Below, piece after piece: positions 3,711 to 27,725 of a DNA stretch of 32,000 nucleotides. The first letter of the stretch is position 1. The number at the start of each line of letters is the position of its first letter. The DNA comes from Methanococcus maripaludis (GTDB lineage: Archaea; AGJL01; Methanococci; Methanococcales; Methanococcaceae). The DNA lies in contig NZ_CP026606.1 in NCBI RefSeq assembly GCF_002945325.1, positions 750,001 through 782,000 on the forward strand, written 5' to 3'. The notes under the pieces were generated by a model. That model was not told the DNA's origin and did no database searches. It was given only the letters and a program-made list of their open reading frames with translations. Both the position numbers and the translations under genes were made by a program.

Positions 3711-5501
3711 TTATTGATATCCTTTTAATTTTAATCCATAACCGTACTCCCAAGATTTAAAATCTTCTCCTGCAAGCATGTCGATTATTGATGGGTAATT
3801 ATCCGCTTCTTCATAGTACAGGTTATAATCACTTCCCAAAACATACCGGGTACCTTCTGCTCTTGGGGGCGTTATATAATTTATTCCTACTGTTTTTGAT
3901 AAAGAGTAAATATTTGTTGTTGGTTCTATTGAAGCATATTTCCTAACACGGAAATTATCGAAATAGATATCATAAGCATCTATCAAACTTCCTCCTGAAG
4001 TACCCAGTTCAAAATAAGTTCCGTATTTCTCAAGATTCTCTTCTGAAATCATCCAATCGGGTTCATTGTCAGATATATAATCTTCCAAGGTACAATATTT
4101 TGCCTGAATATCGTCATCTAAAACTTCCAATTTAATTGTATACCATTCATTTTCAAGAGGAGCATTGAAGAAATCTGTTCCAACGTATGTCCGAAGTACA
4201 TTATTATAATCAACAGGATATTCTTTGGAAAGTCCGAAGAAAATATCGAATACTTTCAAATCCCATATTAAATTGGATCCAGTAAGGGTAAATAATGCGC
4301 CATGTACGCTACTCATGTCAACTGAATAAAAAGCATCAGGGTGGGTTGTAGTTTCTGCCAAATATTCAGGGTCTGCAAAAAATCCAAGCATTGTATAAGG
4401 GCCAGGAGTGCTATCATGGAATGCAAAATAACCCATTGAATCAACTTCCACAATATACTCACTTAAACTTGTATTTTCTGTGGAGATCATTCTGGCAATG
4501 TCTGGTGCATCCTGACATGTTATAATATTTTCATTATAAAGACTGTTTGAATATATATTTGAATTGGAAATATACTCCCAATCCCCCCTGTAAACATTCC
4601 ATTTTGAATAGAGTGAATTACTATCCTCAAAATCATCAAACATTTCAAATACTCTATTACCATTGCTTTCTGAAATTTTTGGATATGTTGACAAGATATA
4701 TACTGACGTGTTTATATTCGCATCCAATATTGGAACTTTTAACCACAACACTGATGTTCGATCATTGTCATCGTCACTATAATCCCATACTTCAACCCAA
4801 TAAGGGATATAATTCCCATTTTCGTCATAAAATCTAAGACCTTCTCCAGTAGGTTCTATTGAATAATCAAAATTAGAGTCGTTAAAAACCACTTTTACCT
4901 GAAAATCATACAGTGTTTCTGCATTAGGATTAGATACGTTTATTACTCCGACATATGTAGGTTTTATGTAATGGTAAGCATCCAAAACCGTTTTTACAGT
5001 GGAATATTGAAATGAAGAAATATTTTCTTCTTTGATAACGCCTTTGTTTCCTTGGATTTTATAATACAAATCATAATCCAATTTAAAGGTGAACCCGTCA
5101 ACCATCGTAATATTTGTCATGCTAAAATTATAATCGATAGTATATCCTAAATTAGAATATTCTTCGCTTACATTTTCAAGATAATCCTTCACTATTATAT
5201 CTTCCGTCCCATTTTTTAAATACGCTAAAGTATAATTAGTAGACTCAAAAAAAGGGTCTCCTGAAGGGTTGTTATTATAATTGTCGATTACTTCCAGCTC
5301 TGCATCATTTAATACTCGGTTAAACACTGTTGGAAGAGAGCTTTCGATTATGTGTTCTAAGGAAGAAGATTTTAAGTCTATTGAAGACGCTTCCATTTCA
5401 GTTAAAACTTGATTTTTTTGCAAATCCAATGTATTATATGTTAAAGTGGCAGTCAGTAACAATAATAATACAAGAGTTGTAGTGCTTTGAGAAAGATACA
5501 T
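3711..5501 (-). CDS. large pilus-locus protein with DUF2341-like and LamG/concanavalin-like regions and an N-terminal hydrophobic segment
   Basis: 596 aa with a strong AAGGTGG RBS. N-terminus is MYLSQSTTTLVLLLLLTATL. The block LRFYDENGNYIPYWVEVWDY...VLWLKVP is DUF2341-like. FDDFEDSNSLYSKWNVYRGDWEY...FDNFRVRKY is LamG-like. It is a paralogue of the ORF at 6048-7733 and has many N-x-S/T sequons. Confidence 0.75.
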   Translation of the reverse strand: MYLSQSTTTLVLLLLLTATLTYNTLDLQKNQVLTEMEASSIDLKSSSLEHIIESSLPTVFNRVLNDAELEVIDNYNNNPSGDPFFESTNYTLAYLKNGTEDIIVKDYLENVSEEYSNLGYTIDYNFSMTNITMVDGFTFKLDYDLYYKIQGNKGVIKEENISSFQYSTVKTVLDAYHYIKPTYVGVINVSNPNAETLYDFQVKVVFNDSNFDYSIEPTGEGLRFYDENGNYIPYWVEVWDYSDDDNDRTSVLWLKVPILDANINTSVYILSTYPKISESNGNRVFEMFDDFEDSNSLYSKWNVYRGDWEYISNSNIYSNSLYNENIITCQDAPDIARMISTENTSLSEYIVEVDSMGYFAFHDSTPGPYTMLGFFADPEYLAETTTHPDAFYSVDMSSVHGALFTLTGSNLIWDLKVFDIFFGLSKEYPVDYNNVLRTYVGTDFFNAPLENEWYTIKLEVLDDDIQAKYCTLEDYISDNEPDWMISEENLEKYGTYFELGTSGGSLIDAYDIYFDNFRVRKYASIEPTTNIYSLSKTVGINYITPPRAEGTRYVLGSDYNLYYEEADNYPSIIDMLAGEDFKSWEYGYGLKLKGYQ

Positions 5502-22294: not shown

Positions 22295-23773
22295 CTATTT
22301 CATTTCAGAAACTGCCCTGTCAAACTCTTCTTGAATTTCTAATGACGGTTCTTTATCCATTAAACTTACAACGGTAATCATTACTGATGCAAGCAAAAAT
22401 GCCGGAACAATTTCATAAAGGTCGAAAATTCCACCGCTCAAGTTTTTCCAGAGAATTACCATAAATCCACCAGATAACAGTCCTGCAAGAGCACCATTTC
22501 TTGTCATTCTCTTCCAGTACAGTGAAAGCAATATTACTGGACCAAATGCGCCACCAAATCCTGCCCATGCGTATGAAACTAGACCCATAACGCTGCTTCC
22601 AGGAACTATTGCAAAGTAATAAGCTATTGCCGCCACAACAATTACCGCAAACCTGCTTATCCATAAAAGCTCTTTTTGACTTGCATTTTTATTTAATAAT
22701 GCATAAATATCTTCAGTAATTGCTGAAGCAGTCACTAAAAGCTGTGAATCTGCAGTACTCATGATAGCTGCTAAAACACCTGCCAAAAATAACCCTGCAA
22801 TAAGACTTGGGAATAACCCTTGTGCCATTGCCATGAATACATGCTCCGGATCATCAAGTGGTGCTCCAAGAGCCACTGCACCGACCATTCCAACAAGTAC
22901 TGCCATAAAAAGGCTGATTACAACCCAAGTGGTTGCAATTTTTCTTGCTTTTGGAACTTTATCAGCTGATTTGATTGCCATAAACCTTACAAGGATGTGC
23001 GGCATTCCAAAGTATCCTAGACCCCATGCAAGAGCTGATGCAAGTCCCATTATACCTAAGGATTCCCCATCTAGGTTGGTAAATGGATTTAGGTAATCTG
23101 GACTTATTGAATTCCATGCATTCATTGTAGCATCAATTCCACCCACCTGTGAAATCCCCATGATAGGAATTAAAAATATCGCAATAAACATGAGGGAACC
23201 TTGTATAAAGTCAGTCCAGCTAACTGCAAGGAAACCGCCGAGGAAAGTATAACCAATAATTACTAAAGCACCTATTGTAACTGCGAGAGTATAATCTACA
23301 CCAAATACAAGATTGAACAACTTTCCGCCTGCAACTAATCCTGAAGACGTGTACAATAAGAAGAATAGCATAATAAAAAACGCTGAAACAATTCTTAACA
23401 ATTTAGACTGATCCCTAAACCTATTTTCTAAGTAAACGGGTATTGTAATAGAATCTTTTGCAATTTCTGTGTATCTTCTAAGCCTTTCTGCAACGAACTT
23501 CCAGTTTAGGTAAGTTCCGATTGCAAGACCAACTCCAATCCATATTTCACTCATTCCTGAAAGATATGCAACGCCAGGAAGGCCCATAAGAAGCCAACCG
23601 CTCATGTCTGAAGCTTGCGCACTTAACGCTGCAACCCAACTATTTAATTTTCTGCCACCAAGCACATAATCGCTTATCGTTTCGTTTCGCCTGTAAAAAT
23701 ACATACCTACGCCCATTACCACGAGCAAATAGAGTATGAATACCAAAACGATACTCAAATTTTCTGATATCAT
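22295..23773 (-). CDS. putP: sodium/proline symporter (SSF family), PutP-like
   Basis: 492 aa and polytopic. The block LGGRKLNSWVAALSAQASDMSGWLLMGLPG closely parallels the conserved PutP N-terminal signature. Confidence 0.85.
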   Translation of the reverse strand: MISENLSIVLVFILYLLVVMGVGMYFYRRNETISDYVLGGRKLNSWVAALSAQASDMSGWLLMGLPGVAYLSGMSEIWIGVGLAIGTYLNWKFVAERLRRYTEIAKDSITIPVYLENRFRDQSKLLRIVSAFFIMLFFLLYTSSGLVAGGKLFNLVFGVDYTLAVTIGALVIIGYTFLGGFLAVSWTDFIQGSLMFIAIFLIPIMGISQVGGIDATMNAWNSISPDYLNPFTNLDGESLGIMGLASALAWGLGYFGMPHILVRFMAIKSADKVPKARKIATTWVVISLFMAVLVGMVGAVALGAPLDDPEHVFMAMAQGLFPSLIAGLFLAGVLAAIMSTADSQLLVTASAITEDIYALLNKNASQKELLWISRFAVIVVAAIAYYFAIVPGSSVMGLVSYAWAGFGGAFGPVILLSLYWKRMTRNGALAGLLSGGFMVILWKNLSGGIFDLYEIVPAFLLASVMITVVSLMDKEPSLEIQEEFDRAVSEMK

Positions 23774-23970: not shown

Positions 23971-25440
23971 TTATTTTTTATTGAATATGTAGTCAAGGTG
24001 TTCACTTTCAAATGGTTTTGTAATGAGACTTACTGCCATTACAACAAATATCGGTGCAATCATTGCTAAAGAACCAACTGCAGGCATATAAACGCTGTTT
24101 ATTCCAAAGTAATATGCTCCTCCAAACATTATTACGAGAGCAGATGTGATTCCTGCCCATACTCCTTGTTTTGTAGTTCTTTTCCAGTATAATCCTAAAA
24201 AATATGGGGCTAAAAGACATCCTGATACCAAACCCCATGAAAGAGCCATTAATGATAGAACATAGCTGTTTGGAACTATTGCAAGTATGAACGATAATAC
24301 AACAAATAAAACGCACAACAATCTCATCAATATCATCGTGTTTCTATCTGATAAGTCAGTTTTTAATCTTCCTTTTACAAAGTCTATTGAAACAACGGAA
24401 CTTGAAGCGAGCACGAGTGATGCTAAAGTAGACATTGAAGCTGAAATTACAAGTACGAGAATTAATGCTGCAACCCAGTCAGGAAGTGCAATTTCCATTA
24501 TTTTTGGAACTATCATATCAGGACTTGTTAAGCCTGCTGCAGCTTTTGAAGCGCTATCTGGGTAGAAAACCCTACTTACAGTTCCAATATATGCTGCACC
24601 AAATGTAATGATAAATGCAAATGCTGTTGAAACCCATTTTGCAGAAACTGCTGCTTTTTCACTTTTTATCGTGTAAAATTTATGTATCATCTGCGGAAGG
24701 CCCCAGCTGCCGATACTCGTGAGTAATGCAAGACCCATTATCGGAATAAAGCTTGCTTCATTTATTGGGGTTACCAGCATTGGATCTATTGAACTTAAAT
24801 TCGACAGCATTCCAAAAAACCCGCCAACTTCAGGGTTGCTGCCTAAAAAGAATACCATTAAAAGTACCCCAATTACCATGATGCACCCTTGAACGAAGTC
24901 TGCAAGTGTTGCCGCGATAAATCCTCCGAAATACAAGTAGATCGCAGTTAATGCCGCCATTAAAATATACGCATTCATTGGAGATATTCCAAATCCTTCA
25001 AATAAGAAATTTAAACCTTTATAAATAGATGCAGAATACGGAACTAAGAAGAAAAAGATGATAAACGCAGTTAGTGATTCTAAATTCTTGCTTTTATACC
25101 TTTTTTCTAAAAAACTAGGCATTGTTGATGCACCCAATCGTTGCGTCATTTCTCTTGTTTTTTTACCAAGAACCTGCCATGCTAAAAAACTTCCAATAAT
25201 CGTATTTCCAACAACTATCCACATTGTCGGGATTCCAAAACTCCAACCCATTTTTCCAGCAAATCCTATAAAAATAACCGCTGAAAAATAAGCTGTACCG
25301 TATGAAAACGCAGACATCCACGGGTTTACGTTTCGCCCCCCGAGTAAAAAGTCAGAAACCCCTTTGATTCTTTTTTTCGTTATGGTAGCTATTCCTATAA
25401 TCATAGCAATATAAACCGCCAAAAACACGTAGTGCCACAT
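23971..25440 (-). CDS. sodium:solute symporter family transporter (PanF/other SSF-like), substrate unknown
   Basis: Polytopic. FLLGGRNVNPWMSAFSYGTAYFSAVIFIGFAGK and the overall SSF layout. The ATG at 25440 has GAGGT 6 nt upstream (the ORF track starts at 25467). Confidence 0.8.
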   Translation of the reverse strand: MWHYVFLAVYIAMIIGIATITKKRIKGVSDFLLGGRNVNPWMSAFSYGTAYFSAVIFIGFAGKMGWSFGIPTMWIVVGNTIIGSFLAWQVLGKKTREMTQRLGASTMPSFLEKRYKSKNLESLTAFIIFFFLVPYSASIYKGLNFLFEGFGISPMNAYILMAALTAIYLYFGGFIAATLADFVQGCIMVIGVLLMVFFLGSNPEVGGFFGMLSNLSSIDPMLVTPINEASFIPIMGLALLTSIGSWGLPQMIHKFYTIKSEKAAVSAKWVSTAFAFIITFGAAYIGTVSRVFYPDSASKAAAGLTSPDMIVPKIMEIALPDWVAALILVLVISASMSTLASLVLASSSVVSIDFVKGRLKTDLSDRNTMILMRLLCVLFVVLSFILAIVPNSYVLSLMALSWGLVSGCLLAPYFLGLYWKRTTKQGVWAGITSALVIMFGGAYYFGINSVYMPAVGSLAMIAPIFVVMAVSLITKPFESEHLDYIFNKK

Positions 25441-25586
25441 AATTAACCTCAAAAACTTTGATAACATTTGAAAAAATAGTTAAAATTCAACAATATAATT
25501 CCTATTTTATGGCATTTTTATTTATATTTATCTAATTTTTGAGAAAAGAGTAAAAAATGTATAAAATTTTAAAATATTTAAAATAA

Positions 25587-26510
25587 TTAATTTGAATAGT
25601 ATTTTTCAAGCGGAGGAACTACCTGTTTCTTTCTTGACATCAGTCCATCAATAAATACACTTTTTCCATCCAATTTAAGTTTAAATGCAGTTTCAAAAGC
25701 TGATTTGTTTCCTGCAACTAAAACTTCACTTCCTTCTCTCATGATGTCAGTTACAAGGAATAATACCATATCATATCCTTCTTTTTCAATCATTTCGTCG
25801 ATTAAATTTTGAATTGCTTCTTTTTTAGATGCAACTTCGGACATGTCGATTACTTCGGCTTGGCCGATACCTACCTTTTTACCGCCCATGTCAAATGGTT
25901 TATAATCGATGTGTAAAATTTCTTCTGGAGTCATTTTACCAACAGTTGATTTTGCAGTCAGCATTTCCATTCCGTATGCAGTAATGTCTGAAATTTCTGC
26001 AATTTCTGCTAATTTTCCTGCGAGTTCCTTATCAAGTTGTGTTGCTGTAGGCGATTTGAAGAGTAATGTATCTGAAAGGATTGCTGAAAGTAAAACTCCT
26101 GCAATGTCTGCTTTTAATTCCTTATTTTTTCCGCCGATAATGTCGAGTATTCCTCTAAAGTAAAGTTCTGAAATTACACTTGCAGTTGATCCAACAGGTT
26201 TTGAGAGGTAAATAATTGGTTCAGTTGTTGAAATACCGATTTTGTGGTGGTCAATAATTCCAATTAATTTTCCTTTATCAAAATCATCGAGGTTTTGTGA
26301 TTTTTCTGCATGATCTACCAAAAATAATTCTTTTCCTTCCGCAGTTTTAATTAATTCGGGTTCCATTAATCCAAATCTCTTTAAAATAAACTGTGATTCC
26401 GGATTTAATTCACCAAGTCTTGCAGGAAATGCATCTAAAAAATATGCAAGTGCTATTGCAGAACAAATGCTATCTGAATCAGGATTTTTGTGGCCTACAA
26501 CGTACATCAT
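25587..26510 (-). CDS. ppaC: manganese-dependent inorganic pyrophosphatase (family II, DHH/DHHA2)
   Basis: 307 aa. Motifs VVGHKNPDSDSICSA, LVDHAE, IIDHHK, SAILSDTLLFKSPT and C-terminal SRKKQVVP. GGTGA RBS 5 nt upstream. Confidence 0.95.
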   Translation of the reverse strand: MMYVVGHKNPDSDSICSAIALAYFLDAFPARLGELNPESQFILKRFGLMEPELIKTAEGKELFLVDHAEKSQNLDDFDKGKLIGIIDHHKIGISTTEPIIYLSKPVGSTASVISELYFRGILDIIGGKNKELKADIAGVLLSAILSDTLLFKSPTATQLDKELAGKLAEIAEISDITAYGMEMLTAKSTVGKMTPEEILHIDYKPFDMGGKKVGIGQAEVIDMSEVASKKEAIQNLIDEMIEKEGYDMVLFLVTDIMREGSEVLVAGNKSAFETAFKLKLDGKSVFIDGLMSRKKQVVPPLEKYYSN

Positions 26511-26569
26511 CTATATCACCAAAAATGAAAAAATTAATGATTTTTATATTATTTAAGCCGGGAAAGACT

Positions 26570-26577
26570 ATAAATAC
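26570..26577 (+). promoter_or_regulatory. TATA-like box (TATAAATA) with purine-rich upstream element, candidate promoter of the H/ACA-like sRNA
   Basis: GGAAAGAC-TATAAATA lies about 25-30 nt upstream of the first hairpin (26601). This spacing fits the usual archaeal TATA-to-start distance. Confidence 0.3.
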
Positions 26578-26600
26578 ATAATGATACTTATTAATAACAT

Positions 26601-26834
26601 CTTCAATTAACCGACCTACATGGAGCTTGTGAATACTCTCGCTGTGATAGCGGGTTCGAAATTGGAGTAACAAAACTTTAATCGAATTTTTGGGCGAGTT
26701 GTAAGAGTTGGTAGGATCCTTACTGTGAACACAATACAGCAAAAATTCGTACATTACTCTCGACATAGGGTTATCTGACCGACATGGTATTTTCCAAGGA
26801 TGAAAGTTAGTGTTAATGTCGAGGGACACTTTTT
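26601..26834 (+). ncRNA. candidate three-hairpin box H/ACA pseudouridylation guide sRNA
   Basis: Three consecutive hairpins, each followed by ACA. Hairpin 1: 26601-26667, 8-bp basal stem CTTCAATT/AATTGGAG, ACA at 26670. Hairpin 2: 26683-26749, perfect 10-bp stem CGAATTTTTG/CAAAAATTCG, ACA at 26751. Hairpin 3: 26757-26825, 10-bp stem CTCTCGACAT/ATGTCGAGGG, ACA at 26826, then C and T5. Hairpins 1 and 2 contain K-turn-like geometry: GA opposite (3-nt bulge TGT)-GA. The region is locally GC-richer than its flanks, and the only ORF here is not protein-like. Confidence 0.6.
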
Positions 26835-26879
26835 CAATGAAAAAGAAAATAGAAGTAAAAATTGAAAGAAGAATGAATA

Positions 26880-27659
26880 CTATTTTAAGGATGTTTTAGC
26901 AGTTTTATCAAATGGATTTCTCCTCATCGCAAGAGAGAACAAATATGGATAATTATTTTTCAAATATTTCATGTAATTTACCCATTCTATTGTTATTAAT
27001 CTGTATGATCGAACCATATCTCCGTTTAAATGCATTATATCGTTTTCTGAACTTTCATGCAAATTTTCACGGCTTTCAAGTTCTTCTAAAAGGTGAAAAA
27101 CTGCCCTAAGTAATTCAGTGAAGTGTTCGTGCTCCATTAAATTTGGATTTTCTAAAAGCCTCATTAAAAATTCTTTGTTTTTTGATAAAAATTCATAAAT
27201 TTCCAAAATATCTTCTTTTGAAGCATTTAACGTATAATCCCGGTCTTTAGCATAATTTAGCGCATTTTTAAAGTCTTCGTCAACCCACGAATCTGTGACT
27301 TTTAATTTATTTCCGATTTCTTCAATATTTGGGTCGATTTTCGAGAAATATTTTAAAGATTTAGTTCCAGTTTCACTGAAAAATGTGCCAATTAGTATGT
27401 TTAATTTTTCAAGTCTCGCGCTTTTTTCCATGTCGCTTAAAATTCCAGAAATTACCACGGTTATTAAGAATACCTGAATTGGAACAAATGCTATTTTTCC
27501 AAAAAACGAATTTATTATTCCCAAATAATCATTAAATACTGCATACTGGACAATATACATTAAAATAGACGCAACTAATGCAGAAACCCAGAAGATTTTG
27601 TGCTGTTTTGTTTTCATAACTATCGCTTGGATTGAATTTTTTAGTTTTTTTATAAACAT
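26880..27659 (-). CDS. membrane protein of unknown function (N-terminal TM helices plus helical cytoplasmic domain)
   Basis: The start is placed at the ATG at 27659 (MFIKKLKN). The ORF-track start at 27707 would run through the arsR promoter and operator. Hydrophobic segments are KIFWVSALVASILMYIVQYAV and IAFVPIQVFLITVVISGIL. No family was recognised. Confidence 0.6.
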   Translation of the reverse strand: MFIKKLKNSIQAIVMKTKQHKIFWVSALVASILMYIVQYAVFNDYLGIINSFFGKIAFVPIQVFLITVVISGILSDMEKSARLEKLNILIGTFFSETGTKSLKYFSKIDPNIEEIGNKLKVTDSWVDEDFKNALNYAKDRDYTLNASKEDILEIYEFLSKNKEFLMRLLENPNLMEHEHFTELLRAVFHLLEELESRENLHESSENDIMHLNGDMVRSYRLITIEWVNYMKYLKNNYPYLFSLAMRRNPFDKTAKTSLK

Positions 27660-27682
27660 GTAATTGTTAATTTTCAATATAC

Positions 27683-27705
27683 GAATATAAAAAATTATAT
27701 ATAAC
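27683..27705. promoter_or_regulatory. back-to-back TATA-like boxes of a divergent promoter region
   Basis: GAATATAA (27683-27690, read on the minus strand as TTATATTC) lies about 25-30 nt before the ATG at 27659. TTATATATA (27695-27703) lies about 25 nt before the ATG at 27726. This suggests short or absent leaders on both sides. Confidence 0.35.
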
Positions 27706-27725
27706 ATTTGAACAATTGTTCAAAT
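27706..27725. promoter_or_regulatory. perfect 20-bp palindrome ATTTGAACAATTGTTCAAAT, predicted ArsR/SmtB operator
   Basis: Verified base by base: ATTTGAACAA is the reverse complement of TTGTTCAAAT. It lies between the TATA-like box and the arsR-family ATG at 27726. The TGAACA/TGTTCA half-sites resemble known SmtB/CzrA-type operators. Confidence 0.65.

Follow-up and report, generated by a model that had tools for sequence, protein, structure and literature searches.

A predicted three-hairpin box H/ACA guide RNA beside ppaC in Methanococcus maripaludis, a divergent relative of HgcG/Pab40

The archaeal RNAs HgcG, Pab40, Pf7 and Afu4, which make up the Rfam family RF00064, carry three tandem H/ACA hairpins on one transcript. 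In archaeal H/ACA particles L7Ae sits on the K-turn of the hairpin, and Cbf5-Nop10-Gar1 on the lower stem and the ACA box. The box consensus in Archaea is ANA, and U2016 of Pyrococcus abyssi has been modified in vitro via motif 3 of Pab40 (PMC2377435). From the Pyrococcus guides Toffano-Nioche et al. derived a '10/5/9' fold, which allows for a 1-nt bulge beneath the K-turn (PMC4652768). The literature searched yielded no description of H/ACA RNAs of M. maripaludis. The locus described here, which lies in a 32-kb window (the whole stretch of 32,000 nucleotides that was analysed), very probably encodes such an RNA: a box H/ACA guide sRNA of ∼236 nt, transcribed on its own, divergent from HgcG/Pab40/Pf7/Afu4 but related to them, with three predicted targets in 23S rRNA. 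The first-pass annotation of this DNA had already assigned the locus to the H/ACA class, and that assignment is now supported by hairpin anatomy, conservation, covariation, family similarity and guide–target complementarity.

The RNA-bearing gap spans 26511–26879 and has the 369 nt that had been given for it at first pass. On one side it is bounded by the ppaC open reading frame (25587–26510, minus strand; 100% identity to the M. maripaludis manganese-dependent pyrophosphatase PpaC) and on the other by a gene for an MJ1433-like protein (26880–27707, minus strand). The sRNA and ppaC form a divergent pair, the sRNA and the MJ1433-like gene a convergent one. In M. maripaludis S2, ppaC is MMP0219 and its neighbour across the gap is MMP0218 (PMC10450193 Dataset S1). 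Downstream of ppaC lie tandem paralogous sodium/solute (SSF) symporter genes (22295–23773 and 23971–25467, minus strand), which correspond to MMP0220 and MMP0221, the SSF symporters of strain S2 (PMC10450193 Dataset S1). The Term-seq and operon tables of strain S2 list protein genes only, and hold no entry for the sRNA. M. vannielii, M. voltae, contig L015 and Methanothermococcus have no MJ1433-like gene in the syntenic gap and an ArsR-type gene directly beside it, a pattern that suggests that the MJ1433-like gene was inserted in the lineage of M. maripaludis. Elsewhere in the window, two independent short-read assemblies that contain ppaC both stop at position ∼4938, inside an open reading frame at 3711–5501 (minus strand), as calculated from the record coordinates; this hints at a repeated sequence near that point.

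Ahead of the hairpins, on the plus strand, a TATA box TATAAATA can be read at 26569–26576, directly preceded by a purine-rich, BRE-like element GGGAAAGAC (26560–26568). In all orthologues a TATA box with such an element stands 23–24 nt before the first stem; the upstream box reported at first pass does exist, 24 nt ahead of the hairpin 1 stem. Archaeal TATA boxes are found ∼26 nt upstream of the start site, and transcription would thus be predicted to begin near A26599. At the other end, the last ACA is followed by a C and a T5 run (26830–26834), exactly as first described, and the run is likely to be an archaeal terminator. Runs of at least four T residues immediately past the last ANA box are present in 5 of the 7 other orthologues. 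From the promoter, the T-run and the family match set out below we infer a plus-strand transcript of ∼236 nt (26599–26834). In M. vannielii (L007 2299–3000, minus strand) a promoter-like sequence, AAAGACTATAAATA, is present twice, ∼67 nt apart, upstream of the sRNA.

A covariance-model search, which had been suggested at first pass, gave no match to any Rfam family anywhere in the 32-kb window at gathering thresholds. With E-value reporting, the sole match in the 32 kb was to RF00064 (HgcG/Pab40), the archaeal three-motif H/ACA family. It lies on the plus strand at 26543–26833 and covers the full model length (positions 1–276), with a score of 25.1 bits against a cut-off of 77 and E-values of 0.0027 over the whole window and 4.3e-5 in a local search of 501 nt. 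The orthologues likewise fall short of the curated gathering cut-off (19.8–43.3 bits against 77 bits), with significant E-values, and it is this shortfall that accounts for the gene being unannotated. The alignment covers hairpins 1 and 3; hairpin 2 is an unaligned insertion. The pocket strands GGUUA and UGUUA of hairpin 3 are identical to the HgcG consensus. The first 57 model positions align to the AT-rich promoter flank (26543–26599), outside the RNA. The transcript of P. abyssi begins at the first H/ACA motif (PMC4652768), and together these two observations indicate that the HgcG model includes flanking sequence that is not part of the RNA.

The three tandem hairpins are 67, 67 and 69 nt in length (26601–26667, 26683–26749 and 26757–26825), with basal stems of 8, 10 and 10 bp, and all of these dimensions agree with the first-pass annotation. 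Hairpin 1 and its box (26601–26672) comprise a lower stem (26601–26608/26660–26667), a pocket with the 5′ guide AACCGA (26609–26614) and the 3′ guide UUCGA (26655–26659), and an ACA at 26670–26672. Hairpin 2 and its box (26683–26753) have a lower stem at 26683–26692/26740–26749, the guides UGGGCGA (5′, 26691–26697) and ACAGC (3′, 26736–26740), and an ACA at 26751–26753. Hairpin 3 and its box (26757–26828) have a lower stem at 26757–26766/26816–26825, the guides AGGGUUA (5′, 26767–26773) and UGUUA (3′, 26811–26815), and an ACA at 26826–26828. The layout is common to all three: a lower stem, an open pocket forming the internal loop, an upper stem with a GA/UGA K-turn signature and, 15 nt past the top of the pocket, a single-stranded ACA (at 26670, 26751 and 26826, separated from the stems by 2, 1 and 0 nt). 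The 3′ ends of the upper stems fall where they had been placed at first pass, at 26654, 26735 and 26810, each 16 nt ahead of its ACA. The guides tentatively proposed there were right for hairpins 1 and 2 and truncated for hairpin 3, whose pocket strands are AGGGUUA/UGUUA rather than AGGG/TGTTA. Alternative folds from RNAalifold and from free-energy minimisation, in which hairpins 1 and 3 have closed pockets, were rejected, as they conflict with the fixed H/ACA spacing; the pairs that close these pockets are uninformative because they are invariant among the orthologues.

The K-turn signature could be located in each hairpin. In hairpin 2, G26705-A26706 faces UGU-GA (26724–26728), with UGU (26724–26726) as the bulge and the adjoining pairs G26707–C26723 and U26708–A26722. 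In hairpin 1, G26623-A26624 faces UGU-GA (26643–26647), within a C-UGU-GA element at 26642–26647. Both arrangements had been recognised at first pass. For hairpin 3 the first-pass annotation had pointed to CUGA (26775–26778) opposite GAUGA (26799–26803); both motifs are present, but the GA of the K-turn is G26781-A26782, which faces GAU-GA (26799–26803), and not the GA of CUGA. A K-turn built on CUGA was dropped, since CUGAC (26775–26779) pairs with GUUAG (26806–26810) as part of the upper stem, and this pairing covaries. The presence of CUGA and GAUGA at these positions, the latter as part of GGAUGA, could also be taken as the mark of a box C/D methylation guide. However, the two boxes stand in reversed order, with the D-like box 5′ of the C-like box, there is neither a terminal stem joining them nor a C′/D′ pair, and the Rfam search of the window returned no significant C/D family. 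Given, in addition, the covarying CUGAC–GUUAG pairing, a C/D guide is exceedingly improbable here.

The folding energy of the region does not differ significantly from that of shuffled sequences (z = −0.24 over its full length; −1.1, −1.3 and −2.9 for the hairpins taken singly), and the minus strand folds about equally well. The case for an RNA therefore rests on comparative evidence. Orthologues were gathered via exact-protein look-ups; a scan of genome contigs with the PpaC protein found no relative. The order ArsR-type gene, gap, ppaC is kept in M. vannielii, M. voltae, a Methanococcus-like contig and Methanothermococcus, and the syntenic gaps match HgcG on the corresponding strand in Methanothermococcus (43.3 bits, E = 4e-9), M. 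voltae (24.3 bits) and M. vannielii (19.8 bits). Moreover, the sequence pattern of hairpin 1 alone, used without synteny, brought up two additional, distinct versions in metagenomes, each with three hairpins. The comparison of orthologous gaps proposed at first pass thus places the RNA in the same gap in other genomes of Methanococcus and in Methanothermococcus, and each of the three basal stems shows compensatory changes. Synteny is lost in contigs of Methanocaldococcus indicus, of Methanofervidicoccus and of an M. okinawensis-like organism, and no RNA could be read there.

The orthologues vary in content and in their boxes. The Methanothermococcus version (L010 2707–2875, minus strand; also L028 and L029) consists of hairpins 1 and 3 only and measures ∼169 nt, and its hairpin 1 K-turn has an A in place of the 5′ G. 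Hairpin 2, the predicted A-loop guide, is missing from that locus; the metagenomic versions L024 and L025 keep all three hairpins. AUA or AAA replaces ACA after all three hairpins in M. voltae (L008 2562–2806, minus strand) and in L024 and L025, with the 15-nt spacing unchanged. These triplets fit the archaeal ANA consensus (PMC2377435).

Covariation was assessed in an alignment of 8 distinct orthologue sequences tested against the three-hairpin structure. Across the 8 orthologues, 90.4% of the pair cells hold a standard pair, compared with 39–45% when the partners are slid by 1–3 columns. Double-sided pair changes number 13 against 6.5 expected, a count reached by 1 of 500 shuffles, and the covariation score of 0.189 (0.126 in shuffles) was reached by none of 500. 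Two pairs of the hairpin 1 lower stem and three of the hairpin 3 lower stem change on both sides among the orthologues, and hairpin 2 has double-sided changes in both its lower and its upper stem. RNAalifold independently recovered the three lower stems. Column identity is highest in the pocket strands (98.3%), followed by the K-turn GA/UGA elements (95%), the lower stems (89.7%), the apical parts (79%) and the linkers (73.5%), and neither hairpin 1 nor hairpin 2 shows any change in its pocket strands in any orthologue that carries it. As judged from these sequences, the conservation pattern is that expected of a guide RNA.

These data also bear on two readings in which no guide RNA is made. 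The conserved sequence might be promoter or regulatory DNA of ppaC or of the convergent neighbour, with the hairpins incidental, and the AT-rich promoter-like elements that adjoin ppaC in the gap, the alignment of the first 57 Rfam model positions to promoter-like flank and the unremarkable folding energy are all in keeping with this. Regulatory DNA would nevertheless hardly account for three stems kept paired by compensatory changes, or for conservation that peaks in the pocket strands, 90–300 nt from the ppaC start. Furthermore, the element persists in M. vannielii, M. voltae and Methanothermococcus, which lack the MJ1433-like neighbour, and was recovered in the two metagenomic orthologues by its hairpin 1 pattern. 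This reading is accordingly very unlikely. Still less probable is that the region codes for a 116-aa protein on the minus strand (26479–26829). An open reading frame of that length is indeed open in this strain, and was described at first pass as unlike a protein; among the orthologues it is open only here, the antisense frames being shorter or broken by stops in the closely related C5-like strain and every other orthologue, and it overlaps the start of ppaC. The geometry of the hairpins favours the guide RNA reading. The succession GA, 7 nt, 5-nt 3′ guide, 10 nt and ANA is found in 20 of the 23 hairpins of the 8 orthologues, and the 5 + 10 spacing, which sets the pocket top exactly 15 nt from the ANA and so within the 14–16 nt of H/ACA RNAs, in all 23. 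At the sequence level, a 5′-strand GA lies opposite (N)UGA in all three hairpins, 7 nt above the pocket in 20/23. This layout is that of the '10/5/9' fold of the Pyrococcus guides (PMC4652768).

Candidate targets were sought by scoring bipartite pairing at every U of the 16S and 23S rRNAs of the Methanothermococcus sp. Ax23 operon; the 16S probe MC1109 had retrieved rRNA operons of Methanothermococcus, not of M. maripaludis. The 23S rRNA of P. furiosus served as outgroup and to calibrate the published numbering. All three pockets can pair bipartitely with 23S rRNA around an unpaired U-N, which was the complementarity looked for at first pass. The best match of hairpin 3 is UAAC-UA-UAACCCU in helix 69 (11 bp; equalled by 33 of 2000 shuffled guides), with the target equivalent to E. 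coli U1915. That of hairpin 1 is UCGA-UG-UCGGUU in the peptidyl-transferase centre (10 bp; 48 of 2000), equivalent to U2504. Hairpin 2 matches the A loop best (10 bp; 58 of 2000), in either of two registers, GCUG-UU-CGCCCA (U2554) or GCUGU-UC-GCCCA (U2555). The per-hairpin p-values against shuffled guides are modest (∼0.02–0.03). The sequence contexts of the E. coli equivalents were checked on E. coli 23S rRNA, and the position numbers are the standard ones for that molecule. All three target strings are present in the 23S rRNA of M. maripaludis C5 (supplement of Dennis et al. 2015, PMC4644070), and those of hairpins 1 and 2 occur in no other of the seven archaea that the alignment covers. Each predicted duplex leaves the 3′ guide's first nucleotide unpaired and has no more than 4 bp on the 3′ side; the validated motif 3 of Pab40, with its identical UGUUA strand, is built in the same way.

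Further observations concern the rRNAs. Around position ∼2617 of the P. furiosus 23S rRNA (L031 6142–9192, minus strand) the sequence is CCUCGCUGUCGGCU, against CCUCGAUGUCGG in Methanococcales and E. coli, with C in place of E. coli A2503, and the A-loop stem of P. furiosus reads GGUGUUCACC against GGCUGUUCGCC. A 138-aa open reading frame runs antisense to the helix-69 region of 23S (L019 4888–5304, minus strand); its 669 'protein' relatives in the protein collection make up a spurious family called on rRNA.

The three assignments differ in how they relate to the Pyrococcus guides. HgcG/Pab40 and the Methanococcus RNA have the same spacing of stem, guide and K-turn, and motif 3 is shared in both its pocket strands (GGUUA/UGUUA) and its helix-69 target U (P. 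abyssi U2016, M. jannaschii U2015). Indeed, the Pf7/Pab40 motif 3 site is the same helix-69 U as the predicted hairpin 3 site, and the helix-69 string is the same in Methanothermococcus, P. furiosus and M. maripaludis. The stems of the Methanococcus RNA, in contrast, are AT-rich, and the other two motifs diverge. The Pyrococcus motif 1 site, UGC-UA-CCUCG, is the equivalent of E. coli 2496 (P. abyssi U2588-equivalent), whereas the site predicted for hairpin 1 is the equivalent of 2504, 8 nt downstream; the hairpin 1 pocket AACCGA/UUCGA does not fit the former and does fit UCGA-UG-UCGGUU. Hairpin 2, with different guide strands, has no relation to motif 2 of Pyrococcus, and its predicted target is the A loop. 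Since the RF00064 cut-off is not reached, and since the motif 3 target is shared and the targets of motifs 1 and 2 are not, the most fitting description of the RNA is that of a divergent HgcG/Pab40 relative from Methanococcus.

It is conceivable, though we consider it unlikely, that the locus encodes a true H/ACA-type sRNA of which at least one hairpin is an orphan or acts elsewhere, as an rRNA-folding chaperone or on another target such as 23S GCUG-UA-UGUCCGA, so that the sites given for hairpins 1 and 2 are wrong. Neither of these sites has a validated Pyrococcus counterpart, Pab40 motif 1 acting 8 nt upstream and motif 2 elsewhere; hairpin 2 has a near-equal second candidate (score 9.5 against 10) in addition to its two A-loop registers; and the shuffle p-values are only ∼0.025. 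The invariance of the hairpin 1 and 2 pocket strands argues against this, as does the occurrence of the matching strings in the 23S rRNA of M. maripaludis as the sole holder among seven aligned archaea. In species with AAACCGA, moreover, hairpin 1 would form a longer duplex, of 7 bp, with the rRNA sequence UCGGUUU.

The yeast H/ACA snoRNAs snR191, for the 25S pseudouridines 2258/2260 in helix 69, and snR10, for pseudouridine 2923 in the A loop, serve equivalent positions of the large subunit. These too direct RNA-guided pseudouridylation but have two hairpins, H and ACA boxes, no K-turn and Nhp2 in place of L7Ae, and they show no sequence homology to the Methanococcus RNA. In bacteria, RluD (pseudouridines 1911/1915/1917) and RluC (955/2504/2580), which act at the positions predicted for hairpins 3 and 1, respectively, are by contrast stand-alone, protein-only synthases that use no guide RNA. 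To our knowledge, the position of E. coli U2504 is modified only by the bacterial protein-only RluC. It is possible, if somewhat doubtful, that hairpin 1 has been retargeted, its pocket having slid by 8 nt on the 23S strand relative to Pab40 motif 1, and that it now directs pseudouridylation at the U2504 equivalent.

On the established archaeal mechanism, we infer transcription of the RNA, its assembly into a ribonucleoprotein and the formation of the predicted pseudouridines. L7Ae would bind at the K-turn of each hairpin, and the lower stem and ACA box would be taken by Cbf5-Nop10-Gar1. Both pocket strands would then pair with 23S rRNA on either side of the unpaired U-N, and Cbf5 would isomerise the unpaired U to pseudouridine; in E. 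coli numbering, the predicted sites are U1915 for hairpin 3, U2504 for hairpin 1 and U2554 or U2555 for hairpin 2.

Overall, the biology proposed for this locus is expected housekeeping and holds no surprise: the RNA appears to be an ordinary archaeal H/ACA guide that had gone unannotated. M. maripaludis is a genetic model methanogen, and the fact that a curated Rfam threshold misses its AT-rich orthologue exposes an annotation gap. For the functional core of 23S rRNA the analysis predicts three concrete pseudouridine sites, one each in helix 69, the A loop and the peptidyl-transferase centre. It also provides a small case of guide evolution, in which hairpin 3 has remained frozen between Pyrococcus and Methanococcus, hairpins 1 and 2 have changed predicted targets, and hairpin 2 has been lost in Methanothermococcus. 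If true, the retargeting of hairpin 1, together with an A-loop guide that Pyrococcus lacks, would amount to a lineage-specific rewiring of a conserved multi-hairpin guide RNA.
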